DNA of 61,043 nucleotides, the filler included, from an uncultured Methanosarcinales archaeon (lineage in GTDB: Archaea > Nanobdellota > Nanobdellia > Woesearchaeales > CAZPJY01), in assembly GCA_964587045.1 (NCBI GenBank). It is 4 parts of 4 records of this genome, joined end to end, with 100 filler letters (N's around TTAATTAATTAA, not from the genome) between each part and the next. Parts side by side here need not be neighbours in the genome. Positions count along the whole stretch, not along the records: positions 21,455 to 42,030 come from CAZPJY010000032.1; 3 more parts are not named here. One strand, given 5' to 3'. The notes under the pieces were generated by a model. It saw only the letters and a program-made list of their open reading frames with translations. It did no database searches and was not told the DNA's origin. Position numbers and translations under genes: made by a program. Shown in pieces: positions 29,865 to 42,984 of the stretch (position 1 is its first letter; each line of letters starts with the position of its first letter).

Positions 29865-30800
29865 TTATGACGCAATGTAAAAATTGCTCCTCTTCTCAAT
29901 CAGCCCTCTTTTGAGCAGGGACTTCAATATCAGCCTCACCTTTGGGTTAGAGTATCTTGTGAAGATCTCCTTCTCTGTGCATGGCCTTCTCCGGAGTAGG
30001 TCAAGAACTTCGTGGACCAGTTCTGTCTCGCCTAGGTTCCTATTGATTGCTTTGGGCTGGGATTGCATGTAATACACCACTTCTATGCCTGTCGCTTGGT
30101 TTATTTGTGACGCAATCCGCCCGAGTCTCTTTTCGCCAATGCGCCGCAAGCCTGCCTTGCCGCTTGGCCTGTAGGCAGTTCCGAGGAATATGGTGATTGG
30201 CTTGGCAGAGTGGATCTCCTGATAAAGATGAATCATCTCTCTTATGGTCTTTTCATCTGCATTAGTCAACCCGTTGCTAGAGAACAACAAGGTCTGGATA
30301 GCCACCCGGGTCTTTAATTCCTTGATGCTCCTGACTATATCGGACAGAAGCATGCCCCTGCTCGGTCTGTTAATCTCGTCAAACAGTTCCTGGTTTGGGG
30401 CGTCTATCTTGGCGATGACTAAATCGCAGCGTTCCAAGCCTCTTTTCACTGCAGGATCATTTGCAAGAGAGGCGTTGGTGAGAACCGCAAGCGGGATTTT
30501 GGTCATCCGTTTTATCCTCGCAGCCACAGCACCCAGGTTCAGGTTGATTGTTGGCTCCCCTTGCCCAGAGAAGGTGAGGATATCAGGTTTTGTCTGGTCG
30601 ATCTTTACCTTCAGATTCATAAAGTCCTTCTCTGTTGAATCCACCTTCACAGGCTTATCGGTCTTAAAGCATTTGTCCCCAAGCTGGCAGTAGACACAGT
30701 TAAAAGAACATATTTTACTGTATCCCGAAGGGGGTTTTACTAAATCGACCCCTAACGAATTTCCTAACCTCCATGAGGGGACAGGGCCATATATATTCAT
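29865..30800 (-). CDS. Radical SAM protein
   Basis: YGPVPSWRLG.SLGVD, CSFNCVYC, FSGQGEPT, VLTN.SL. Confidence 0.9.
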   Translation of the reverse strand: MNIYGPVPSWRLGNSLGVDLVKPPSGYSKICSFNCVYCQLGDKCFKTDKPVKVDSTEKDFMNLKVKIDQTKPDILTFSGQGEPTINLNLGAVAARIKRMTKIPLAVLTNASLANDPAVKRGLERCDLVIAKIDAPNQELFDEINRPSRGMLLSDIVRSIKELKTRVAIQTLLFSSNGLTNADEKTIREMIHLYQEIHSAKPITIFLGTAYRPSGKAGLRRIGEKRLGRIASQINQATGIEVVYYMQSQPKAINRNLGETELVHEVLDLLRRRPCTEKEIFTRYSNPKVRLILKSLLKRGLIEKRSNFYIAS

Positions 30801-30836
30801 TTTCACCTCGTTTTTCTCAGCGAGCTTCCCATGCAA

Positions 30837-32183
30837 TTATTTCATCTTGCCTATGGCGTCCTGAGCCGCAACTATGAGTGGGTAGGTTGTGGGTGCGGCG
30901 GTAAGCTTAGGATGGGTCGCCAGCTGCATCGTCTCAAGCTCGGTCATGGAGACATTTTTCTGGAGCGCGAGCCCTATGATGTTGACAATCTCCCCAATCG
31001 ACTCTCCCCCTGCTACCTGGCCTCCCAGGAGGATTCCGGACTGCTTTGAAAAAATGAGTTTGAACTTAATCTTGTGCGCGTCTGGGATCTTGCCTGGATG
31101 CCTGTCCACGCCTTCAGCACGGCCAACGATGATTTCAAAACCCTCCTGCTTGGCAGTCTTCTCGGTCAGGCCGGCTGATCCAAGAGCCACATCGCCAAGC
31201 CTCGTAGAATATGTCGCGATGGTCCCCCTGTTTTCCCTCACCACCTTCAATCCGAATAGGCTGGCTCCAGCAATCCGTGCCTCAGCGGTAGCTGTCGAGG
31301 CGAGCATTACAGGTATCCTCTTTCTGGTGAAGAAATCCCGCTTCTCTGCACAATCACCAACTGCAAAGATGTTGCTGTCTGTGCTGGTACGCAAGTACTC
31401 GTCGACCAGTATCCCCCTGCTCTTGCCAATCTCCAAGCCAGCATTTGCGGCGAGCTCCGTGTTGGGTGAGGTCCCAATCCCCAGGATGATGACTTGGCAG
31501 GGAATCTGAGCGCCGCTGGAAAGCTGTACCGACTCTACCTTGTCATTCCCGTTGATTTTAACGACTTTCTCCCCACTGATTACTCTTACGCCGTTCTTTT
31601 CCAGCGCACCCTTTGCAAGCATGGAGAACTCTGAGTCGAAGGAATTCGCAAGGATTTCTGGGAGGAACTCAACTAGGGTGACATTCGCGCCCTCGAGCTT
31701 CGAGAGCTCATCGGCAAACTCCACACCGATAAAGCCGCCACCGATTATGATTATTTCCTTTGCATGCGACACAGCTTCCTTCAGTTTTTTGAGGTATTCC
31801 ATCTCCTTTATTACTGTGTACACGCCTTCCTTTTCAATCCCCTCGATGGGCGGCTTAATCGGATTAGAACCCACAGCGAGAATCAGCTTCTCATACCCCA
31901 AGGTTTCCCCGTTTTTCGTCTTTATCTCCTTTGCGTCCCTGTCTATGCCTGTGACCTCATCGACCTTGAGTTCGATGCTATTTGCCTCAAGCGACTGTGT
32001 CCCCATGCAATTGTCATCAGGCTGTTCTAGGGTCGTGAAGATGTAGGGGATGCCGCAGGGTATCACGCCTGTCTTGTATTGCTTGAGCAGCAGTATCTTT
32101 TTTTCAGGGTAGTATTTCCTAGCTGTCAGCGCACTTATCATGCCGGCGGGACCTCCGCCCACTATTATAACGTCGTATTTCAC
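30837..32183 (-). CDS. FAD-dependent pyridine nucleotide-disulfide oxidoreductase (CoA-disulfide reductase/NADH oxidase family)
   Basis: GGGPAG, PCGIPY redox Cys, GGGFIGVE, FAVGDC, dimerisation domain. Confidence 0.92.
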   Translation of the reverse strand: MKYDVIIVGGGPAGMISALTARKYYPEKKILLLKQYKTGVIPCGIPYIFTTLEQPDDNCMGTQSLEANSIELKVDEVTGIDRDAKEIKTKNGETLGYEKLILAVGSNPIKPPIEGIEKEGVYTVIKEMEYLKKLKEAVSHAKEIIIIGGGFIGVEFADELSKLEGANVTLVEFLPEILANSFDSEFSMLAKGALEKNGVRVISGEKVVKINGNDKVESVQLSSGAQIPCQVIILGIGTSPNTELAANAGLEIGKSRGILVDEYLRTSTDSNIFAVGDCAEKRDFFTRKRIPVMLASTATAEARIAGASLFGLKVVRENRGTIATYSTRLGDVALGSAGLTEKTAKQEGFEIIVGRAEGVDRHPGKIPDAHKIKFKLIFSKQSGILLGGQVAGGESIGEIVNIIGLALQKNVSMTELETMQLATHPKLTAAPTTYPLIVAAQDAIGKMK

Positions 32184-32209
32184 CAGTAATCACCTCTACG
32201 CAAGAAACA

Positions 32210-32692
32210 TTATTCGCTTTCTTTTCCTTCTCCTAACTCTTCCATCACAGCTTTCTCGACGTATTCCTCTCTGTCGCTGCCGTGGTACCCCTTGTTTATC
32301 GCTTCGTTATGCGCCCTTGCCACTGCCTTACGTACCTCATCACTGCCGCCATACTGGGAGTAAAGGGAAGAATATTCGCTCTGGATCGCCTTATAATTCT
32401 TGGTGCTGATGACATATTCAACCCCAGGTCCGATTTCCCAACCTTGCTGTTTGGCAATTTTTTCCAGGCCGGAACCATCTTCCTCTCCTTGACCCACTCC
32501 TTTTCCCATGCCTGCGCCTTTTGAGCCCTTTCCATCGGGAATGTTTCCACCAGGTCCTCTTCCTTCCTTTCTATAGGGAACATTATTTTTCATGCCACTC
32601 CCATCCGCTCTGCCGCCGCCAGGCCCGTTTCCACTACCATAAGGACCTGTGCCGTCAGCTCGGTGACCGCCCGGTCCTTGGTTATACGTCAT
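32210..32692 (-). CDS. Hypothetical protein with Gly-rich N-terminal repeats
   Basis: Three GPGG...DG.G repeats; AGGTGGT SD. Confidence 0.7.
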   Translation of the reverse strand: MTYNQGPGGHRADGTGPYGSGNGPGGGRADGSGMKNNVPYRKEGRGPGGNIPDGKGSKGAGMGKGVGQGEEDGSGLEKIAKQQGWEIGPGVEYVISTKNYKAIQSEYSSLYSQYGGSDEVRKAVARAHNEAINKGYHGSDREEYVEKAVMEELGEGKESE

Positions 32693-32722
32693 TTTTTACC
32701 ACCTTGATAATTTTTATCCTAG

Positions 32723-32887
32723 TCACAGGTTTCGCCGGAGTCCTCTTCCTCCGCGTCCTCGTCCGCCCCTTCTTTTCATAAAAGGTCGTGAATTGTCAAG
32801 TTTTTCGTCACTGCCTTCACACCTTCCGAGGCCTCGTCCTGTCCTTGATCCTTTTCCTTCTGGTCCTGTTCCGTCTTTGTTTGGCAT
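32723..32887 (-). CDS. DUF5320 family small protein (54 aa, not in ORF track)
   Basis: MPNKDGTGPEGKGSRTGRGLGRC...RRGGRGRGGRGLRRNL; AGGTGA SD. Confidence 0.85.
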   Translation of the reverse strand: MPNKDGTGPEGKGSRTGRGLGRCEGSDEKLDNSRPFMKRRGGRGRGGRGLRRNL

Positions 32888-32910
32888 TTTATCACCTAAA
32901 TTGTTTATTA

Positions 32911-32930
32911 TTATGAATATATATTCATAA
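32911..32930. promoter_or_regulatory. Perfect 20-bp palindromic operator
   Basis: TTATGAATATATATTCATAA in the divergent promoter region. Confidence 0.7.
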
Positions 32931-33010
32931 CTAATATATATATTTTATTGTTATGCAGGCTAGAAAAATAGATAAACTCCCTAGATATGCTAGTTTGCGG
33001 GGTGAAACAA

Positions 33011-33301
33011 ATGTTGCATGAGGACAGAACCAAGCTATCTGACAAGACCCAAGACATGAAGCGCGCCATAGACTCTCTCAAAGAAGAGCTGGAGGCCGTG
33101 GACTGGTACAACCAGCGCGCCGACGCGTGCACCGATAAGGACCTAAAGAGAATACTGGTCCACAACGCGAACGAGGAAAAGGAGCACGCCTCGATGATCC
33201 TCGAGTGGATCAGGCAGCACAACAAGGATTTTGCAAAGGAGCTGAAAGAGTACCTATTCTCAGAAGAGGGGGATATAGCTGGCAAAGAGGAAGCGCACTG
33301 A
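33011..33301 (+). CDS. Encapsulin-associated-type ferritin-like protein (EncFtn/Flp)
   Basis: RAI.SL.EELEAVDWYNQRA.AC.D..L..IL.HN..EEKEHA.M.LEWIR. Confidence 0.9.
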   Translation: MLHEDRTKLSDKTQDMKRAIDSLKEELEAVDWYNQRADACTDKDLKRILVHNANEEKEHASMILEWIRQHNKDFAKELKEYLFSEEGDIAGKEEAH

Positions 33302-34117
33302 TCAGTCGAACTCGCCTTCAGGGGCGATCTTGAGGTAGTCAAGGAACCAGGCGTCCTCGCCCTTAGTCCGTTTTTCCCAGGTCTGACCGATGACCTCGTC
33401 GGTCAGCCCTATTTTCGAAAAGTAGGTCCTCTTGTAAAAGTAGATGGGCTTCCCGATTTTTGAGAGGACCATTCCTGCAAGCTTCCTGTCAATGGATGAG
33501 TTCTTTCCGACATAGCCTCCCTTACCAGGCTGGAAGTCGAAAACGTCGTAGAAGCTGAGGTACTTGCCCTTCTCGTCATAGCCAATAGACAGCGTGAAGT
33601 TTCCGAAACCCTCTACGGGTCCGAAGTCTCTCATATTGACAAGCCTGCTGCCATAGTCCCAGTAGTAGCTGTGGTGCTTGTTGCCTTCTTGGGGGAGCGG
33701 CACTATGTCCCCTTCCTTCATCTCCCTGATGCGGTAGAGCATGCTTATCATGCAGGTCTCGAGCGATCTGGTGTCCAGGTTGATTTGGATGAGAGGGCTG
33801 GGGTCGTAGAGCTTCACATCCGGTGGCAAGGTGGCTGAAGTAGGTCTGTACTTGGACAGGGGTAAGGGGTTTTCCTGCTTGCCCAAGTAGATAGCGTTGA
33901 GGTCCATCTCTTCAGGAACGTTGGCATTGTCCGGTATGGCATCATAGTCCCCGCGGGTGAGCACCAGTTTGGGGAGGCTCCTTACGATTTCCTCAGCGGT
34001 CATCCCTGTGGGATTGTGGCTCATGATGTTGTGCGCTATGTCTTTGTAGGTCAAGGTACCTACGATTCCCACCCCTGCCAGGGTGATCGCCAGCGTCTTG
34101 AAGAACCTGTTGAACAT
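33302..34117 (-). CDS. Hypothetical exported protein
   Basis: N-terminal signal/TM from ATG 34117; YLSFYDVFDF motif. Confidence 0.65.
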   Translation of the reverse strand: MFNRFFKTLAITLAGVGIVGTLTYKDIAHNIMSHNPTGMTAEEIVRSLPKLVLTRGDYDAIPDNANVPEEMDLNAIYLGKQENPLPLSKYRPTSATLPPDVKLYDPSPLIQINLDTRSLETCMISMLYRIREMKEGDIVPLPQEGNKHHSYYWDYGSRLVNMRDFGPVEGFGNFTLSIGYDEKGKYLSFYDVFDFQPGKGGYVGKNSSIDRKLAGMVLSKIGKPIYFYKRTYFSKIGLTDEVIGQTWEKRTKGEDAWFLDYLKIAPEGEFD

Positions 34118-34177
34118 GGGATTATTGATAGGTTTGAGTATATAAATCTTTCGTTTTTTACCACTAGAAAGTGACAA

Positions 34178-34210
34178 AGATATTCCGTCCGGGCCTGCGG
34201 ACAACAAAGC
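34178..34210 (-). repeat. att-like repeat copy A (degenerate tRNA 3' end plus arm)
   Basis: + strand AGATATTCCGTCCGGGCCTGCGGACAACAAAGC. Confidence 0.85.
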
Positions 34211-34391
34211 TTAGATCTGCCTTAGCCCTCACCCATGCCTCCTTCTTGTTTATAAACTCAGGCCTCATATGAGAATAAGAGTGAGTCGGAATCCCTAAAG
34301 ATACCGGTTTTCTTTTTTAAATAAATGGAGAATATTATTCAATCTACAAATTATAACAACAATTAATAAGCAGTTGTGGTTAAATAGTACC

Positions 34392-35264
34392 ATGGAAGAT
34401 AACAGCAAGGCTATATTCTTTGCATTGTTAACAATCATACTATGGGGGACGACCGCAGCAGTTACAAAAATGTTACTTGGGAATATCTCAAATATCCAAT
34501 TGCTGTTCTATATTACCTTATCAGCCACTATTTCAACTTTAGCTGTATCACTCTTTTACAAGAAAACAAATGAGATCATAGCTTTAGTAAAAAATCAGAC
34601 GCTACCAATCTTCCTATTAGGCTTCTTCGGACTTGGAGTATACCAATATTGCTATGTTACCTCGTTTGCAAACGCACCTACAGCTTCTGTTAATGTGCTG
34701 AACTACATGTGGCCGATTCTAATCTATGTGTTCTCAATCATTATACTCAAGGACAAGTTAAGTTGGAAACATATCTTGTCATTAACTTTAGGATTGCTGG
34801 GTGTTGTTATTGTAATAACTAAGGGACAATTTGTAGCGTTTGAAAATCAGTACCTGCCTAGTTACATGATGGCCTTAATTGCTGCATTCTGCTGGGCCAT
34901 ATTCTCAGTTATCAACAAACAAAAAGGATTCGATCCAATAAGCTCCGTGACACTTTATAATTTCTCAGCATTGATACTGATGTTCCTACTAATGTTAATC
35001 AAAGGTAAGTCGTTTATCATCCCACAAAGCGATTTGATTGGGAGTGTCTATATAGGAGTTTTTCCAACAGCCATTGCATTTATCACATGGATAAAAGCCC
35101 TACACCTTGGAAAGGCTTCCATGATTGCAAACCTTGGTCATTTAACTCCATTTATCTCCCTGGTTTTCATTTTTCTGCTACTAAAAGAGAAGATTTATTC
35201 TAGCGAAATAATCGGTTTGATTGTTATTGTGTCTGGGATCCTAATACAAATTCTAAGAAAATAA
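34392..35264 (+). CDS. EamA/DMT family transporter
   Basis: About 10 TM segments in two EamA repeats (LWG, NYMWP, LTP...KEK); AT-rich DNA. Confidence 0.9.
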   Translation: MEDNSKAIFFALLTIILWGTTAAVTKMLLGNISNIQLLFYITLSATISTLAVSLFYKKTNEIIALVKNQTLPIFLLGFFGLGVYQYCYVTSFANAPTASVNVLNYMWPILIYVFSIIILKDKLSWKHILSLTLGLLGVVIVITKGQFVAFENQYLPSYMMALIAAFCWAIFSVINKQKGFDPISSVTLYNFSALILMFLLMLIKGKSFIIPQSDLIGSVYIGVFPTAIAFITWIKALHLGKASMIANLGHLTPFISLVFIFLLLKEKIYSSEIIGLIVIVSGILIQILRK

Positions 35265-35267
35265 ACC

Positions 35268-35300
35268 AAATGCCCCGTCCGGGCCTGCGGACAACAAGGC
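35268..35300 (-). repeat. att-like repeat copy B
   Basis: + strand AAATGCCCCGTCCGGGCCTGCGGACAACAAGGC. Confidence 0.9.
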
Positions 35301-35373
35301 ATGCTGCTTCTTGAGCCCTTACATCTTGTTTACGATTTCAGGCTATGTACTTAATGGTATGAGCGTGAATCCA

Positions 35374-36324
35374 TCAATAAGCAGTTGTCCTAGTTCTGTG
35401 GTATGGCTTATCTGCAGGCCACTTGGTTTGGCCTTCCAGCCACAGGTAATCGTTTACATCCACTGACATAATGTTTGGATATCTGTCCCGAATAACCTCC
35501 TTGATCTGCTCTACAGCGTCGATTGTACAAGCCCGAATCTCGACCTCCCTGGGATCGCCGCTCGGAATCTGGATGTAATTGTCGATCCGGTCCGCCAAAT
35601 CTTTAGAATACTCAAAGACCCCGTGCCTACGCAGCACTTGGGGTATCTTGTAATCCGCGCAAGCGGTCAAATCCTCAATACCTGACAATCCCAAAGATAG
35701 GTGGAAACAATGGCTTATGTCTGAAACTAGCAGTTGGGCCCGTTTGTAGAAATGCAGCGCTTCCCCCTCATACTCAGCAACGTCATGGAAGAAAGGGAAG
35801 TGACCTATTATTAGGTTGTAGAGGCGATGCGCACTTCCGCTCGCTTCTTCCAGGAGATTTCGGAAGCTGCTGTTATACGATTCAACAATAACCTGTCCTA
35901 CCTCTTGTACAATCCTAAGCCTCTCAGCAAACATGGGGATCGGAACATTGCCCTGCAGAACCATTTGAAGGTCTTTCTCGGAAATTTCTGCTAAATATTC
36001 AGCATCTACCAAAGGTATCCCTTGATCCAGGGCATTGCCGATGCATGCAGTCATCGCCCAGCTCCCGTCATACCTGCCACCCAGCCTCTCAACCGCCCAT
36101 TTTGGCTCCCCCCAGTAACAGAAGCTAATGGAATTCAGGAGGAACAGGTACGCCAGCCTGTCGTCTACTGGTAAATCGTGCAGGTTGTACGGAGCGCTTT
36201 TCAGCCAGTGGAGCGGTTTGTCCATTTTGATTTGATCGCATAATCCCTCGAGTTTGGTCGTGTCCACATTGACGAATCTGGCGCTCTGGGTGACTTTCCT
36301 CGCTTGTCTTTTAAGACCGTCCAT
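35374..36324 (-). CDS. qng1: Queuosine salvage hydrolase (DUF2419/Qng1 family)
   Basis: LNSISFCYW, FYKRAQL, ADYKIPQVLR..G, EVEIRA, DYLW, YHRTRTTAY. Confidence 0.88.
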   Translation of the reverse strand: MDGLKRQARKVTQSARFVNVDTTKLEGLCDQIKMDKPLHWLKSAPYNLHDLPVDDRLAYLFLLNSISFCYWGEPKWAVERLGGRYDGSWAMTACIGNALDQGIPLVDAEYLAEISEKDLQMVLQGNVPIPMFAERLRIVQEVGQVIVESYNSSFRNLLEEASGSAHRLYNLIIGHFPFFHDVAEYEGEALHFYKRAQLLVSDISHCFHLSLGLSGIEDLTACADYKIPQVLRRHGVFEYSKDLADRIDNYIQIPSGDPREVEIRACTIDAVEQIKEVIRDRYPNIMSVDVNDYLWLEGQTKWPADKPYHRTRTTAY

Positions 36325-36422
36325 CTTTACTATTTAGTGGTAATATAAAGAATAATAAAATCTTTGGAAGATATTTTTACAATAACAAAGTTTATATATC
36401 ATAATACATTAATATTATATAA

Positions 36423-37361
36423 ATGGATAAGACTGATAACAAAATCTTGCTGGAATTGTTAAAAAACTCGAGGGTGCCTGTCTCGCAACTGGCCAAGAAC
36501 CTTCGGATATCAAGAGAAGTGGTGAACTACAGGATCAGCAGGCTCGTGAAATCAGGCATTATCCAAAGGTTCATCACCGAAATCGACATAGGAAGACTTG
36601 GATACATCGGAGCAGCAGTGTTCATCAACATAAAAGCGACCCGGCAAGAGGAATTCAGACAGTACCTACAAGAGTCCACATTTGTCTCCTGGGTCGCCGA
36701 GCTATCAGGCATTTGGAGCTTTGGGCTGTCGATCATAGGTAAGACAAACGAAGAGCTGGACAAAAAATTCCAGAACCTTTACCAAAGGTTCAAGGAGGCG
36801 ATAATAGACCACAGGTTCACCCTCCATCGGAGGTCCTTATTCTTCTACGAGAAATACTTCCATCAGATGCCGGAAGGCAGCTTGCCGAAAAAGTTATTGA
36901 AACACAGGCATGACGACAAAGATCTACAGATTCTAAAAGAATTATCGATGAACGCTCGTGTGGATAGTGTGGCGCTTTCGAAAACCATCGGCCTGTCAGC
37001 CCCAGCGATAACTGCAAGGATAAAGGGACTCCAGAACGCTGGCGTGATACAGAGGTTCTCGATATTCATTGACACGTCCAAACTTCAACTGTACCAGTAC
37101 AGCGTCTTTGTCATCAACAAGGATGTCGACCAGAAAGGTACAATGATAAAATTCCTGCACCAGCATGGCAAGGTCTCATTCATTGCTGAGTATGTTGGGG
37201 ACCAATTCATCGAGTTTGGTATCGTGATCGAAAATCCCTACGATCTGAGGGGCATACTCCAGGAGATTGAGGAGGCGTTTCCAGCCAACAGGGTGATGGA
37301 GGTCTCATTATTCCAAAAAGAGTTCGTATCTATTGGTCCTCCCAGTTGTGTGTTCTCGTGA
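36423..37361 (+). CDS. Tandem (double) Lrp/AsnC family regulator
   Basis: Two D..D..IL.EL..N.R HTH plus ligand-domain units. Confidence 0.88.
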   Translation: MDKTDNKILLELLKNSRVPVSQLAKNLRISREVVNYRISRLVKSGIIQRFITEIDIGRLGYIGAAVFINIKATRQEEFRQYLQESTFVSWVAELSGIWSFGLSIIGKTNEELDKKFQNLYQRFKEAIIDHRFTLHRRSLFFYEKYFHQMPEGSLPKKLLKHRHDDKDLQILKELSMNARVDSVALSKTIGLSAPAITARIKGLQNAGVIQRFSIFIDTSKLQLYQYSVFVINKDVDQKGTMIKFLHQHGKVSFIAEYVGDQFIEFGIVIENPYDLRGILQEIEEAFPANRVMEVSLFQKEFVSIGPPSCVFS

Positions 37362-37537
37362 ATTTCAGTTGGAAAATGCCTCATCAACAGCGAAAATAAG
37401 CGCATCCGCTTGAATGCATTGATCATTCGCATAAAGCTCTATTGGCACCGGTTATCTATTGCTTGCTCCATGATTTTCTCTTTTTTGAGTAGTAACAAAC
37501 AACAATTTTATTAATAAGCACTCATTGCCCAATACTA

Positions 37538-38641
37538 ATGGAACCTACATCGTTTGAGCGATATCTAGGATATGGTATACATAAACCGACGAAGAAAACA
37601 CTCAATGCATTACTCAAGGAGTGCAAGGAAGTCATTGAAGACAGGAAACTGTCCAATAGTTATGGAATCTATTGGTTCCCCACTGTCGACATCCCTCTGC
37701 GAGGGCAATCTATGAAACGCGGAGGCTACCGTCAAGCAGCTGAACTGTACATTCGACTCCTGATAAATGATTCACATGCTCAGAAACAACTCGTTGGGAT
37801 AGACAGAGAGTTTCTCATTGTCCTTGGCTACCACAAGAAACCGTTCGTTCAGATAAGCGGGTGGCATGACCAGCTAGAGCACACAGCGATACGGGCGGCT
37901 TCTGAACTCCTATCCACCCAGCTTGAACTGCAGCCTTACACTTACCCAAAAATTGACACCAGAAATGGAACATATTACAATGAGCGCTTATTAGGTTTCC
38001 AGGAGGGAATGTCTGGTGAGAAACGAGACACATTCCTGCAACTCGCAGACGCGAGTAGGTTCACACTTGACAAGCTCGATTTGTGTCAACTCCCTGACAA
38101 TCTGCACGTCGATGAAGTAATCATCGGTGTGGGTGGCGAGCTTGAATCTCCTTGGAACAAATATGTAATTGGACGAACACACCTTGCTGTCAGTGTTGCG
38201 GAAGCCTATCACCCTTGGAAGAAAAATCGACAGTGGGGAGTTCTCATTGGTGCAACAACGCCAAACTACAACGATGAACTAGCCAAAGCACACGAAGAGT
38301 TGCTCCATCTCACGGAAGCCTATGGATCGCGAGATATCATTATCACTTGCGGTACTGGTGGTTCACACTCCGCGTACCCAATATATCTCCACAAGGACAT
38401 TGACATGGAAAGAGTGGTTAAAGAAGTTGTAGGTGATGCTCCCATCAAAGGAACGAGATTCACCGATACCGATGAAACCGAGAAACTTTTCATTATGTAT
38501 AATAGCTTGATGAATGGGCTCCCCATCCACAAGTACTATGGGGAACAACTCATACGTGCTATGCAGACTGTGCGCGACACAACAGTAAACATTGAGATTC
38601 AATCAGCCCTTGAATACCGACTTGAAAGCATTCTTGCGTAA
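37538..38641 (+). CDS. Hypothetical protein
   Basis: 367-aa ORF with a TATA-like sequence upstream; no recognised family. Confidence 0.7.
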   Translation: MEPTSFERYLGYGIHKPTKKTLNALLKECKEVIEDRKLSNSYGIYWFPTVDIPLRGQSMKRGGYRQAAELYIRLLINDSHAQKQLVGIDREFLIVLGYHKKPFVQISGWHDQLEHTAIRAASELLSTQLELQPYTYPKIDTRNGTYYNERLLGFQEGMSGEKRDTFLQLADASRFTLDKLDLCQLPDNLHVDEVIIGVGGELESPWNKYVIGRTHLAVSVAEAYHPWKKNRQWGVLIGATTPNYNDELAKAHEELLHLTEAYGSRDIIITCGTGGSHSAYPIYLHKDIDMERVVKEVVGDAPIKGTRFTDTDETEKLFIMYNSLMNGLPIHKYYGEQLIRAMQTVRDTTVNIEIQSALEYRLESILA

Positions 38642-38701
38642 CTTGGCTGCATCATTCAGGGTCAGAGAATGAGATGAGCAACTATCAGCTGTTTGTAGTT
38701 T

Positions 38702-38716
38702 GATGCCCCGTCCGGG
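38702..38716 (-). repeat. att-like repeat copy C (core only, different arm)
   Basis: + strand GATGCCCCGTCCGGG followed by GGAGGGAAGG. Confidence 0.8.
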
Positions 38717-38856
38717 GGAGGGAAGGTTCAAGTCCCCCAGGGCTGCTTTCGCTTATCAAAACGTGCGGTAGGCATTAAAGGCAGTTTTCCGTGTGAAGCG
38801 GCAGCTGAAGGCGTTTTGGGCAAGTATTAAAATACTTACTTGACTTCCTGGATAGT

Positions 38857-39735
38857 GTGAAAGCAATTGATACGGGTATGGGTGTCGCTTTTCTTAGAGC
38901 CTATGGAAGGCTATTCCCAAAGGAAAAGCGACTTGTTGACGATCCCCTTGCTGAGAAAGTATTGACGCCGCTCTACAAATTTTTCTTGTTTCTCATGCGT
39001 TCACCAAAAATATTCGGTCTCATGATGACGTTGGAGAGGAAAAGTAGCGCTGGGAAGACGGGTTGGCTGCTCTGCCGTGTACGGTACATAGACGATGTGT
39101 TACGAGATTGTATTGCGAAAAAGGGTCTCGAATCGGTCGTCAATCTAGGCGCCGGATATGATTGCCGTGCGTATTATATCCCCGGTGCGGAGCACATCCG
39201 TTACTTTGAGGTGGATCATCCCAAGCTCATAGAAAAGAAAAAGGAAAAAATGAAAAAGATATTAGGAAAGCTTCCAGACCATGTTATTTATGTCCCTGTC
39301 AATTTTGAGAAGCAAAGCCTTGATACTGAATTAAAAAAGGCAGGATACGACCTAAAGTCTAAGACCCTTTTCATATGGGAAGGGGTCACCCAATATATTT
39401 CGAAAGAAGCTAATGACAACACTATGAACTATGTGGGGCGTGCCGCTCCGGGCAGCAAAATCGTCTTTACCTACGTTAAAAGGAGTTTTATCGAGGGTAA
39501 AGACCTAAATGGTATTGGAGATAAGAGCATGTATGCCTGGATGGTTAAGGGATTTAAACTGTGGACTTTCGGCCTGGACCCAGCGAAAATGCGCAGATAT
39601 CTCTCAAGATATAACCTCTCTCCCATTGAAGATGTCGGATCAAGAGAGATGAAGGAACGGTATATTAACCAGGTACATCTTGGTCTAGACGTATTTGAGA
39701 TTGAGCGGATAGTTCTCGCAGAAGTTGTGAAATGA
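38857..39735 (+). CDS. SAM-dependent methyltransferase (leucine carboxyl methyltransferase/TIGR00027-like)
   Basis: DP.A, R.RYIDD, VVNLGAGYD.R, FEVDHP, WEGVTQYI. Confidence 0.88.
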   Translation: MKAIDTGMGVAFLRAYGRLFPKEKRLVDDPLAEKVLTPLYKFFLFLMRSPKIFGLMMTLERKSSAGKTGWLLCRVRYIDDVLRDCIAKKGLESVVNLGAGYDCRAYYIPGAEHIRYFEVDHPKLIEKKKEKMKKILGKLPDHVIYVPVNFEKQSLDTELKKAGYDLKSKTLFIWEGVTQYISKEANDNTMNYVGRAAPGSKIVFTYVKRSFIEGKDLNGIGDKSMYAWMVKGFKLWTFGLDPAKMRRYLSRYNLSPIEDVGSREMKERYINQVHLGLDVFEIERIVLAEVVK

Positions 39736-39841
39736 ATCCCGGCGATATGATAACTTTGAGAATAATACCCTTCGGAAAAATCAGGGGAAAGGAAGCGCAA
39801 GCTTTAAATATAATAGTATATAATAGTTATATTTGATTATA

Positions 39842-40042
39842 ATGAACACGACAATATCCATATCCAAGGAAACAAGGGACATTTTAAGAGAATTCGGCAA
39901 GAAATCCGAGAATTATGACGAAGTCATAAGGCGGATGCATAGCATGGTGACCTTGCAGCAAGAGCTCCGGAAATTCGTCGATGAGAATGAGTACTCATCC
40001 CTCAAGGAAGCGAGGGAATGGACCAAGATGAGGATTAAATGA
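39842..40042 (+). CDS. Putative RHH-type antitoxin
   Basis: MNTTISISKETRD.L..FG.K.E.YDEVIRR; ATAA/ATG-type overlap with the downstream gene. Confidence 0.7.
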   Translation: MNTTISISKETRDILREFGKKSENYDEVIRRMHSMVTLQQELRKFVDENEYSSLKEAREWTKMRIK

Positions 40043-40371
40043 TTAGGATAATAATCCTCAACAGCCTTAGGGACGAGATCTGGAAGACCTTCAAGAGGGA
40101 CTCCATGAAGGTCTATGCGCTCATCGCGACGCTCGAGAGGAACCCAAACCGCGGAAAGGTGCTCGGACATGCCGGCGGGATGAGCCTGCGTGAGCTTCGC
40201 TACAAAGGGTACAGGTTCTATTTCATCGTCGATGGGCATAAGCTCATCCTTTTCAATGCCGGAAAAATTAGGGAGCTGCTCATCCGTTTCATCAAAATGT
40301 CGAAGAAGGACAACCAGCAATCGACGATTGATGAGATCAAGCGGATGCTTGAGTTTACCGAAAAAGAGTGA
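40039..40371 (+). CDS. Putative RelE/ParE-like toxin
   Basis: L...P..GK.L, LRELRY.GYRFYF; coupled to the upstream small gene. Confidence 0.6.
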   Translation: MIRIIILNSLRDEIWKTFKRDSMKVYALIATLERNPNRGKVLGHAGGMSLRELRYKGYRFYFIVDGHKLILFNAGKIRELLIRFIKMSKKDNQQSTIDEIKRMLEFTEKE

Positions 40372-40403
40372 GATGCCCCGTCCGGACCTGCGGACAACAA
40401 AGC
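40371..40403 (-). repeat. att-like repeat copy D
   Basis: + strand AGATGCCCCGTCCGGACCTGCGGACAACAAAGC. Confidence 0.9.
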
Positions 40404-40440
40404 ACAGAATTATCCCTAGAACTTCTGGCCACCCGGTTTG

Positions 40441-40481
40441 AAAATCAAAAAGCTCCATACAGTATTAACTGCTGTATGGAG
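40441..40481 (-). terminator. Hairpin plus T-tract terminator
   Basis: 10-bp stem CTCCATACAG/CTGTATGGAG followed on the - strand by CTTTTTGATTTT. Confidence 0.6.
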
Positions 40482-40532
40482 GTAAAGAAGATTCGGGATG
40501 TAATGTTGGGCAATACTTTTAAAGAATGTAAT

Positions 40533-40694
40533 CTATGATAACATTGACTTGTGCAGATTAGACAGGTGCACAAGACGTTGCTTGATTTCAAGTCGTTCTG
40601 ATTGCTTCTTTAACATATCCCTCTCTATTTTCGAAAGGATATACTGCCAATATCCAATTTTATTTTTTATCACCCCTAGATCTAACGTTTTCAT
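40533..40694 (-). CDS. Small hypothetical protein (53 aa)
   Basis: GGGTGGA SD; MKTLDLGVIKNKIGYWQYILSKIERD... Confidence 0.5.
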   Translation of the reverse strand: MKTLDLGVIKNKIGYWQYILSKIERDMLKKQSERLEIKQRLVHLSNLHKSMLS

Positions 40695-40706
40695 TTTTCC
40701 ACCCGA

Positions 40707-40868
40707 CTAATCTCTCAGGTATCCTGCCATGAACCCGGCTTCTTCATTTGATATCATGTCATTCTCACTGGAATCATCAATAGATTCTTGATTATAGAAA
40801 TTTCCGGTGTCTTGATTTTCGTCGGATTCCCAATTGGCATTTAACAGGTATGTTTTCTTTTGAGTCAT
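40707..40868 (-). CDS. Small acidic protein (53 aa)
   Basis: AGGTGGT SD; ends ENDMISNEEAGFMAGYLRD. Confidence 0.7.
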   Translation of the reverse strand: MTQKKTYLLNANWESDENQDTGNFYNQESIDDSSENDMISNEEAGFMAGYLRD

Positions 40869-40869
40869 T

Positions 40870-40995
40870 TCAAACCACCTTATTTAGGAACTGGTTGTTG
40901 ATATGTTCGCGGGACATGACCTCAATGTCACGCTTCCTCTGCAGCTTTTGCATCATCGTAAAGAATCTCAGGTTGTCAGATATTTTTTTCATCAT
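40870..40995 (-). CDS. Small hypothetical protein (41 aa)
   Basis: AGGTGA SD; stop lies 1 nt before the next ATG. Confidence 0.55.
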   Translation of the reverse strand: MMKKISDNLRFFTMMQKLQRKRDIEVMSREHINNQFLNKVV

Positions 40996-41063
40996 TTTGA
41001 TTCACCTTTGAAAATGATACTAGGGCAAAATCTGCCCTAGCCAAAATTTTTCCCCTTTTGTTC

Positions 41064-41183
41064 CTACTCGCTAGGTTTCCCGCAATAAGGACAAATCAAT
41101 GTAAGCCCGATAAGCTTCACCTTCCCCTTATTTTGCTTACCACAATGTTTGCAAATGATCCCCTTAATCGCTGCTTCTGCCAC
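41064..41183 (-). CDS. Zinc-ribbon microprotein (39 aa)
   Basis: MAEAAIKGIICKHCGKQNKGKVKLIGLTLICPYCGKPSE. Confidence 0.6.
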   Translation of the reverse strand: MAEAAIKGIICKHCGKQNKGKVKLIGLTLICPYCGKPSE

Positions 41184-41378
41184 ATATTATAGTTGTGGAC
41201 CGAACTATAACTAGGTATGGTAGTAATAATTGTTAAGGGGGTCGTTGGGCGTTGTTATTTACCTTATGCCCTTACCTAACCCGGCGGTATTTATCATATG
41301 CCAGTTGTTATTTATCTATACTAATAAATTATAAATATGTTTGGTAGTAAAAATTCTCCAAGATTCGGAAAAAAATTG

Positions 41379-41933
41379 TTATTTATCTAAAAAGAATTCA
41401 TTAGATGAAAAGTCTTTATGGTTGAGAATAGTGCCCAATAACCCGATATGGCTGTTCTTGATTATCCTGTCGACGGAGAACGGGTATACGTGGATCAACT
41501 CGATTTCCTTGGAGAATTTGCTCTGCATCCTCATGAGGTATCGGTCCTTTTCATCGATATTCCTGAACCCAATGATCAGCAGGTGCGATATCCTAGATTC
41601 CGGGATGCGGTAGGCGATTATCACTTGCGGAATCTTCTGGATCCTTTCTGCTATCTGTTCCTCTGAATACTTCTCCCAGACGTGATTGGTGAGCTTGATC
41701 CCGACAACGACCAAGGTCTCGATGCCGATCTTCTTGAAATCGATTATGGGCATGTATCCCTTTATGATCCCCACATCTTCGAGCTTGTGCCTGATCTTGA
41801 AGATCGCCTGTTGTGATAAGCCCATGTTTTGCGCTATCTCCATATCAGGGACTTTTGCCTGCTCGATTATCTTCTTCAGGACTTTCTGCTCATTTCCCGT
41901 CAGTTTTGGGATGGTCACGTTTGGCTTGTCCAT
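41379..41933 (-). CDS. Lrp/AsnC family regulator
   Basis: EIAQNMGLSQQA...IR.KLED.GIIKGY...IDFKKIG. Confidence 0.88.
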   Translation of the reverse strand: MDKPNVTIPKLTGNEQKVLKKIIEQAKVPDMEIAQNMGLSQQAIFKIRHKLEDVGIIKGYMPIIDFKKIGIETLVVVGIKLTNHVWEKYSEEQIAERIQKIPQVIIAYRIPESRISHLLIIGFRNIDEKDRYLMRMQSKFSKEIELIHVYPFSVDRIIKNSHIGLLGTILNHKDFSSNEFFLDK

Positions 41934-42016
41934 AACTGCGGGTAAAGCAATCTCATATAAAAAATATTGTTAATGTTGACCTGTCAGAGAGGTCCCGGTA
42001 TCCAGAAAAGGCAAGA

Positions 42017-42030
42017 TGCCCCGTCCGGGA
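42017..42030 (-). tRNA. Probable tRNA 3' end cut by contig break (repeat copy E); isotype undetermined, Glu plausible
   Basis: - strand T-CCCGG-ACGGGGC-A fits last T-loop base, T-stem 3' strand, acceptor 3' strand and discriminator, then a T-rich tract. Confidence 0.55.
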
Positions 42031-42130
42031 NNNNNNNNNNNNNNNNNNNNNNNNNNNNNNNNNNNNNNNNNNNNTTAATTAATTAANNNNNNNNNNNNNN
42101 NNNNNNNNNNNNNNNNNNNNNNNNNNNNNN
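42031..42130. other. Artificial contig linker
   Basis: N-run, TTAATTAATTAA, N-run. Confidence 0.98.

Positions 42131-42984
<854 letters not shown>

Follow-up and report, generated by a model that had tools for sequence, protein, structure and literature searches.

Tandem gene units without a recombinase gene behind the tRNA-Glu(UUC) gene of a Woesearchaeales archaeon

Tail copies divide the end of a contig into four units

Contig C32 of an uncultured archaeon of the order Woesearchaeales ends in an array of four small gene units of low G/C content (GC), which are separated by short copies of the 3′ end (the "tail") of a tRNA-Glu(UUC) gene. The array was studied within a window, meaning the whole stretch of 61,043 nt analysed here, in which four contigs of a 50-contig, 1.6-Mb assembly are joined by N...TTAATTAATTAA...N spacers; position 42030 is the real end of C32. 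The sequence ATGCCCCGTCCGG is present in four exact copies at 35270, 38703, 40373 and 42016, all on the + strand of the window; chance would yield about 0.002 exact copies in a sequence of 61 kb. An initial annotation of the region had reported five copies in the same orientation. Four of these are exact and lie about 2 nt to the right of where it had placed them; the fifth, at 34180, carries three mismatches and is homologous despite them, with 72% identity of positions 34166-34232 to 35256-35322 and 61% to 40359-40425 (67 nt). The stretches at the first, second and fourth copies (O1, O2 and O4; Table 1) all run on into (G/A)CCTGCGGACAACAA. Start-to-start spacings of 1090, 3433, 1670 and 1643 nt yield four units of 1.1, 3.4, 1.7 and 1.6 kb, as initially described.

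All tail copies are in tRNA orientation and 13-15 nt long, each comprising part of the 3′ strand of the T-stem, the 3′ strand of the acceptor stem, the discriminator base and one or two trailer bases. On the tRNA strand the joints are laid out as arm (P), tail (O) and trailer (P′), and they are precise, with the same tail position used each time. T-rich runs follow each tail on this strand, as would be expected if each had once terminated a tRNA transcript. The P arm is common to units 1, 2 and 4, with its first 18 nt near-identical, and the arms of units 1 and 2 can be aligned over ~90 nt. At three joints, arm and tail together form a dyad of GTCCG and CGGAC (5 bp) separated by six bases. The sequence common to the joints amounts to 13-31 nt. 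The arm 14-mer CCTGCGGACAACAA has three genomic occurrences, all in the array, and a search of 150 further genomes of the order, tolerating up to two mismatches, did not recover it; an nhmmer profile of the three arms detected no additional copies in the whole genome. A T-loop-like motif in the arm of unit 3 (GGTTCAAGTCC, + strand, 38717-38750) has no match among the tRNAs of the genome. Single-strand folding of the 111-nt joint regions gave nothing better than shuffled sequences (z +1.07 to -1.43), only the 5-bp hairpin being formed, and no Rfam family matched within 30000-42030. Two cargo genes stop 5 nt (O2) and 1 nt (O4) short of a tail copy on the P′ side, which leaves no space for a long P′ arm and suggests that the functional site is short, perhaps ~30 bp, like those of simple-site recombinases.

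The array differs in composition from the rest of the genome. Its GC is 0.433 compared with a genome mean of 0.537 ± 0.03, placing it among the lowest 0.6% of equal-sized windows, and each single unit falls within the lowest 0.4-2.8% of the genome (0.363, 0.456, 0.446 and 0.404 for units 1 to 4), which bears out the AT-richer cargo noted before. The flanks are ordinary, with 0.504 on the left (31000-34179) and 0.548 on the side of contig C3, which continues the locus (see below). At O1, the left border, GC drops from 0.50 to 0.36.

The units carry one to four genes on both strands, and all cargo open reading frames (ORFs) are intact and packed close to the repeats (Table 1). For units 1 to 3, Pfam agrees with the cargo initially named, namely EamA; Qng1, Lrp and an ORF without relatives (ORFan); and a methyltransferase with a toxin-antitoxin pair, of which the ParE-like member is weak (PF24434, E 3.6e-6; PF05016, E 0.0036, below cut-off). 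Unit 4 had been read as microproteins and an Lrp protein. It does contain a Zn-ribbon microprotein and a winged helix-turn-helix (wHTH) protein; the latter has no Pfam match, and its Lrp-like nature is deduced from an alignment of its wHTH with the AsnC-type protein in unit 2 (27% identity).

Table 1. Coordinates of tail copies, arms, cargo genes, contigs and the probable second island (window positions unless a contig is named).
Feature	Position	Strand	Remarks
O1	34180-34192	-	decayed outermost tail copy ATATTCCGTCCGG, 3 clustered mismatches; left border of island
P arm, unit 1	34193-34270	.	begins GCCTGCGGACAACAA; homologous to arms of units 2 and 4
Unit 1: EamA-family transporter, 296 aa	34374-35264	+	Pfam PF00892, E 7.5e-40
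O2	35270-35283	-	14-nt copy of tRNA tail
P arm, unit 2	35284-35345	.	homologous to arms of units 1 and 4
Unit 2: queuosine-salvage protein (Q_salvage), 316 aa	35374-36324	-	Pfam E 2.4e-71
Unit 2: protein with two AsnC/Lrp-type wHTH domains, 312 aa	36423-37361	+	Pfam HTH_24 and HTH_AsnC-type, two stretches each
Unit 2: 367-aa ORFan	37538-38641	+	without database match
O3	38702-38716	-	15-nt copy of tRNA tail, then unrelated arm 38717-38760
Unit 3: LCM-family methyltransferase, 292 aa	38857-39735	+	Pfam E 6.2e-43
Unit 3: overlapping toxin-antitoxin-type pair (DUF7557, 69 aa; weak ParE-like, 110 aa)	39833-40371	+	
O4	40372-40385	-	14-nt copy of tRNA tail
P arm, unit 4	40386-40425	.	begins ACCTGCGGACAACAAAGC
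Unit 4: 184-aa wHTH protein and 39-aa Zn-ribbon microprotein	41064-41933	-	
O5	42015-42030	-	true 3′ end of tRNA-Glu(UUC); discriminator at 42017
C31	1-21354		window part
C32	21455-42030		window part with array
C34	42131-57903		window part
C49	58004-61043		window part
Probable second island	C13:45706-46425 and C10:46794-47609		two contig ends; 63-nt 'empty' unit with UUC-type tail, then at least 1.5 kb low-GC DNA

Serial insertion would be harder to argue for if relatives carried the same genes in the same order without the repeats, a pattern not seen among the 150 other genomes of the order. The ORFan and the gene flanking the array on the left have homologues in none of them, the methyltransferase has one in a single genome (70% identity) and Q_salvage in six (29-47% identity); these order-wide tallies include two genomes flagged as unpublished (G111 and G131), loci having been read from the other genomes only, and dropping both shifts each count by at most 2. 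The array thus shows the foreign composition and patchy cargo distribution that mark a tRNA-integrated genomic island. No match to the ORFan was obtained in Pfam, PADLOC, PDB or Atlas, it recovered only itself among 5.8 billion proteins, and a single-sequence fold model was uninformative (predicted local distance difference test, pLDDT, 33.6).

In unit 4, the wHTH and Zn-ribbon genes form a two-gene module that is kept in many genomes of the order (window 41064-41933; C6:48320-49049; L152-L158), and this conservation indicates that the 39-aa microprotein is a real gene. The module of the array shares 73-77% identity with its counterparts in four other families and only 58% with the genome's own copy on C6, indicating a xenologue acquired within the order. 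Between its two genes lie iteron-like repeats (41203-41389), a 14-mer in three copies spaced by 53 and 71 nt and a 29-nt pair 124 nt apart, which could be operator or origin-like sites.

Several further observations concern the cargo and the assembly. A second Q_salvage gene lies at C6:39651-40590; it is 36-44% identical to the copy in unit 2 and reads in two frames, so that it is possibly frameshifted. The one homologue of the unit 3 methyltransferase among the 150 genomes (locus L127, G102:C7) sits within an insertion of ~0.92 kb between 39-nt direct repeats (1453-1491 and 2373-2411, 37/39 identical), which are a duplication of the beginning of the gene downstream; no tRNA is nearby. A partial archaeal SSU (small subunit) rRNA at 42074-42984, at the start of C34, has nothing to do with the array, since the window is a concatenation. 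Together with the intron-bearing tRNAs described below, it supports the archaeal nature of the assembly.

The tRNA-Glu anchor and tails at other tRNA genes

The initial annotation expected a tRNA beyond the contig break at 42030, and one is found there. C32 ends with the same 55 nt with which C3 begins (the assembly contains just four k-mer overlaps of this kind), and C3 runs on with ...TTCGAACCCGAG..., whose minus strand encodes tRNA-Glu(UUC) with a 41-nt intron (C3:42-157; ARAGORN -i). An intron-bearing tRNA-Ile(UAU) comes after it on the same strand. Both are recovered by the Rfam tRNA model, with 43.8 and 61.5 bits, respectively, at a gathering score of 29. The 3′ end of tRNA-Glu(UUC) is the repeat itself, so that the locus has an intact tRNA on one side and, on the opposite side as well as at the internal joints, direct repeats of the tRNA 3′ end, the layout of a tRNA-associated island. 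With ARAGORN defaults no tRNA was found in the window or at related loci, and the intron option was needed. The intron-bearing anchor escapes default tRNA finders, and the position of the array at the end of a contig makes islands of this kind easy to miss in metagenome bins.

Copies of the repeat are not dispersed over the genome; such scatter would likewise have spoken against a tRNA-bound array. Outside the array and the end of tRNA-Glu(UUC), the exact 13-mer occurs only at C13:45771-45783, as part of a 16-nt UUC-type tail 63 nt behind tRNA-Glu(CUC), a gene whose own tail differs at three positions. A UUC-type tail behind a CUC gene would fit a crossover within the last 8 bases, which the two genes share, and movement between the two sites. 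Two 12-mer matches to other tails, of tRNA-Val (window 13786) and of tRNA-Pro (C6:50939), lie inside coding sequence and were discarded as chance matches. Another contig break at a tRNA 3′ end was seen on C4, which ends 1 nt past tRNA-Phe and has a 55-nt overlap with the start of C21. The break of C32 itself, after ...CCGGGA, hints at a second continuation in part of the population, perhaps a further unit.

The region behind tRNA-Glu(CUC) is itself low in GC, with 0.41 in the last 720 nt of C13 compared with 0.545 upstream. Likewise, the last 801 nt of C10, read on the reverse strand, have a GC of 0.32 and end at a 15-nt CUC-type tail, beyond which GC is 0.53. No sequence overlap connects these two contig ends. 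Because their orientation and composition agree, they probably belong to one island bounded by CUC tails with a UUC-type tail inside (Table 1).

Tail-bounded units are also present in relatives. We surveyed 48 loci around tRNA-Glu genes from 40 genomes of the order, in which ARAGORN found 58 tRNAs including 33 tRNA-Glu, for recurrence of the last 12 nt of the tRNA downstream with at most one mismatch and within ~10 kb or less. The tail recurred at 15 of the 58 tRNA loci and at 11 of the 33 tRNA-Glu loci; as controls, reversed tails gave no locus, reverse complements two, and for shuffled tails 0.35 hits were expected. Among the 11 tRNA-Glu loci, one match lies within an ORF and is probably due to chance, and another is a second full tRNA copy. 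The gene-bearing units contain a nucleotidyltransferase/HepT pair (759 nt), a nucleotidyltransferase/HEPN pair, ORFans and a block of ArsR, thioredoxin, DsbD and ArsP together with an insertion sequence (IS) transposase (6 kb). A recombinase domain was absent from all 21 ORFs that were scanned in these units. In one relative, three units at two different tRNA-Glu genes share a 39-nt arm, and the tail copy at one of these genes has the type of the other, which repeats the cross-site signature on C13 in the studied genome.

At many loci, behind tRNA-Glu, Ala, Asp, Ser and Gln genes, we also observed 'empty' units of 60-130 nt, sometimes two or three in tandem (L051, L048, L083, L084, L046, L067, L073, L078, L069). 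They are built of a trailer, an A/T-rich hairpin of 6-9 bp with a T-run, a few bases and a tRNA tail copy, and could represent either 'empty cassettes' or modules for termination.

The genomes of DPANN archaea are tiny and contain few recognisable mobile elements, and the route by which these archaea gain accessory genes is poorly understood. The locus and the survey of related genomes together suggest that in this order tRNA tails are routine docking sites for very small gene units lacking a recombinase, whose cargo includes transporters, regulators, a methyltransferase and toxin-antitoxin pairs.

Recombinase genes and the origin of the array

Tyrosine integrases insert at tRNA 3′ ends and displace the tail. 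The array contains no match to PF00589, PF16795, PF00239 or PF07508, and thus lacks the integrase gene of a tyrosine-integrase island, in agreement with the initial description of its units as integrase-free. Three PF00589 matches are found in the genome, on C24 (truncated at the start of the contig), C37 (283 aa) and C10 (198 aa), and none on C32 or in the first 8 kb of C3. All three proteins are Xer-like, with archaeal XerA as the best NCBIfam model, below its cut-off, and all fall under the integron-integrase cut-offs. Neither the SSV-type (Sulfolobus spindle-shaped virus) integrase family (PF16795) nor a serine recombinase was detected in the genome. Searches of the genome with its own recombinases (tblastn, E<=1) returned nothing in C32, and gave a frameshifted N-terminal recombinase fragment at the end of C19. 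Reading the joints in six frames revealed no common ORF that could be the N- or C-terminal piece of a split integrase, so that the int(N)/int(C) flanks of SSV-type elements are missing as well. Of 151 genomes of the order, 129 have tyrosine recombinases of ~280 aa.

The start of C37 (1-1018) and the end of C19 (35400-35964) share a repeat of ~300-380 nt with 75-76% identity (see also C3:56326-56374), which spans the region upstream of the Xer-like gene and its N-terminus (frameshifted in C19). In the order as a whole, numerous Xer-like genes of ~280 aa are located 450-1000 nt from the start of their contig, as though beside an assembly-breaking repeat.

Mobile, circular or sister forms of the units were sought in sequence collections. 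The tail-plus-arm pattern had no match in viral_contigs, one in genome_contigs, in an Acidobacteriota record and taken for chance, and one in metagenome_contigs, which is the window's own sequence, so that neither a circular form nor a sister element emerged. The 16-nt tail alone occurs at 14 loci in viral_contigs, three of them with a tRNA-like 3′ fragment. Two of these three, L134 and L147, carry ParB-like genes, L147 also a terminase and a DNA methylase, and were set aside as unrelated tailed phages; the other 11 loci were taken for chance from their sequence context. The wHTH protein of unit 4 and the methyltransferase of unit 3 have no relatives in viral_contigs, and no related intact element turned up in the genome, viral_contigs or the metagenome scan. 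The one public run that contains the sequence (share 0.23) gave, on 30000-42030, only contigs of 180-370 nt at depth 1-3 without any joint, and is uninformative on excision and empty sites.

The explanation we favour, with middling confidence, is serial site-specific insertion of non-autonomous units at the tail of tRNA-Glu(UUC) by a recombinase acting in trans. We infer the order of events, the trans-acting enzyme and the view that the units never had an integrase; what is seen directly is how the array is built, the tRNA gene, the foreign composition of the units and their lack of a recombinase gene. The attachment site attB would be the 3′ end of the single tRNA-Glu(UUC) gene, and the four small units would have entered one by one through recombination in its last ~13-15 bases. 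Each arrival would have brought its own tail copy and T-rich trailer, restored the tRNA and pushed older units outward, with unit 1, bounded by the decayed tail copy, as the oldest and unit 4 abutting the tRNA. Such units would consist of cargo and a short composite site, made up of the tail and, in three of the four, a shared arm of ~18 to ~90 nt with the 5-bp dyad. Their mover would be a tyrosine recombinase encoded elsewhere, for which the Xer-like paralogues of the genome or a transient virus or plasmid are candidates. We prefer to read the units as cassettes because no trace of an integrase is found here or in relatives, because the arm is kept in three units with unrelated cargo, and because of the tight packing, the intact ORFs and the exchange of tails between sites.

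Several points weigh against serial insertion in trans. The arm of unit 3 is unrelated to the others, hence the shared site is not universal, and the Xer-like genes lie on contigs other than that of the array, none of them linked to the tail site; at the best 30 such recombinase loci in the order, no tRNA was found within 1.5 kb. We observed neither an excised circle nor an empty site or a different joint, the single metagenome contig having the same joint, and the nearest comparison genomes belong to the same order and another family, so that they offer no true empty-site comparison. An integrase-bearing element could also be unassembled or unbinned in this 50-contig assembly, and the 367-aa ORFan beside O3 is possibly a novel recombinase.

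The main rival holds that the units descend from full integrative elements (proviruses or integrated plasmids), each of which had a tyrosine integrase, inserted at tRNA-Glu and subsequently lost this gene and most others by deletion. We regard such decay, the classic way in which tandem islands and cis-mobilizable elements (CIMEs) arise, as possible. It is the published default for archaea, where, in the accessible text of PMC8371274, integrase-less integrated elements have 'presumably' lost their integrase and tandem integration is known, and the part of PMC5704250 available to us describes a bacterial counterpart, in which CIMEs form by decay and then accrete. The decayed state of O1 and the fragmented bin are compatible with it, and the iteron-like repeats beside the wHTH gene of unit 4 would suit a plasmid remnant. 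However, random deletion should often leave fragments or take away the arm. No integrase fragment is present in the four units or in the 21 ORFs from relatives; instead, three units keep the arm up to the cargo without pseudogene debris, and the cargo ORFs are intact and tight against the repeats.

Insertion might also have proceeded without any dedicated recombinase, by Campbell-type homologous or microhomology-based events that brought in circular or linear foreign DNA, with the tail merely being the most conserved short sequence common to donor and recipient. The precise joints at an invariable tail position make this improbable, as do the three units in which an arm and a dyad, unneeded for homologous recombination, are conserved next to the tail. 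Moreover, an identity of 13-15 nt is very short for RadA-type recombination, and a preference for tRNA 3′ ends is a hallmark of tyrosine integrases. What speaks for it is the methyltransferase homologue at L127, whose insertion between direct repeats away from any tRNA shows that repeat-flanked single-gene insertions in the order are not confined to tRNA tails.

That the repeats are chance or functional motifs (terminator, promoter or operator) or an assembly artefact might be suspected from the small GC hairpin at three joints, the T-rich runs past each tail and the fragmented metagenome bin, and is largely refuted, since the repeat is identical to and adjoins the tRNA tail at a negligible chance expectation, is missing from the rest of the genome save beside the other tRNA-Glu gene, folds no better than shuffled sequence, coincides with no Rfam family, and is found again for O4 in a metagenome contig of 1372 nt, assembled independently, that crosses the joint with identical sequence.

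Serial insertion in trans could extend beyond this locus. A lineage-wide, integron-like capture system in Woesearchaeota-type DPANN archaea, in which units of cargo and a ~30-nt composite site of tRNA tail and lineage-specific arm are inserted into and cut out of tRNA 3′ ends by a chromosomal Xer-like recombinase acting in trans, is a speculative proposal that we consider unlikely. If true, it would account for units without an integrase, for the 'empty' ones of 60-130 nt and for the tail exchange between isoacceptor genes in the order. Should a host or helper recombinase indeed move the units, they would represent a simple-site cassette system distinct from integrons.

Comparison with known systems

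'Gene capture' at archaeal tRNA genes was reportedly described by She et al. 2001. In archaea, one tRNA site can be re-used by successive elements, giving rise to arrays, according to the accessible text of PMC6563490 and PMC8371274. These tandem tyrosine-recombinase elements resemble the array in their site at a tRNA 3′ end, the direct repeats of the tail, the re-use of the site and the foreign composition. However, the proviruses, integrated plasmids and casposons covered in those parts of the two papers (PMC8371274, PMC6563490) extend over many kb, and their integrase is present or visibly once was, whereas the array consists of cargo-only units of 1.1-3.4 kb without int(N)/int(C) or any other integrase fragment. 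It thus matches tandem tRNA islands in all respects save the missing integrase.

Streptococcal CIMEs likewise retain attL and attR, lack genes for integration and transfer, and lie in tandem at a target gene's 3′ end (PMC5704250, as far as its text was available). The array, with att sites on both sides and no recombination or transfer genes, corresponds to this description. By definition, though, CIMEs are decay products of ICEs (integrative and conjugative elements) or IMEs (integrative and mobilizable elements) and become mobilised in cis by an adjoining integrase-bearing element, as the same portion of PMC5704250 states. Here such a partner is missing, the host is archaeal, and the units are smaller by an order of magnitude.

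The tycheposon islands of Prochlorococcus, as described in the consulted part of a preprint (bioRxiv 10.1101/2020.12.28.424599), share with the array a small genome, a position next to a tRNA, elements split only by a partial tRNA copy, the outward displacement of older elements by newer arrivals, and degenerate remnants with extra partial tRNAs. In contrast to the array, where none of this was found, tycheposons bring along a tyrosine recombinase gene and replication genes, and fragmented integrases are among their remnants (same part of bioRxiv 10.1101/2020.12.28.424599).

Integrons and clusters of attC sites lacking integron-integrases (CALINs), including archaeal ones, have in common with the array compact integrase-less units, a recurring site, and cargo of toxin-antitoxin and unknown genes, and for the cassettes of CALINs, movement by an integrase acting in trans is assumed (Ghaly et al. 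2022, PMC9668308, in the sections accessible). The analogy with an integron drawn in the initial annotation therefore holds for the architecture. It goes no further: the site is a tRNA tail without an attC-type fold, intI and attI are missing and no integrase is adjacent, the units are multi-gene and of mixed orientation, one arm differs from the rest, and insertion takes place beside a tRNA. Assignment to integrons or CALINs was accordingly rejected, as none of the attC fold, intI/attI or single-ORF, one-orientation cassettes was found.

Integrase-free elements that integrate, often in tandem, at dif by means of chromosomal Xer-type recombinases are known as integrative mobile elements exploiting Xer recombination (IMEX). 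The array resembles them in being integrase-free, in a genome whose only recombinases are Xer-like; it differs in that the site is a tRNA tail at which no dif was identified, and no link of a Xer gene to the site was found. In the literature searched, with subscription journals outside its coverage, we found no description of such arrays in DPANN archaea or Woesearchaeota. As a process, the array represents tandem accretion at a tRNA attachment site, which is known and CIME-like; what sets it apart is that its units are tiny, lack a recombinase and are common in the order.

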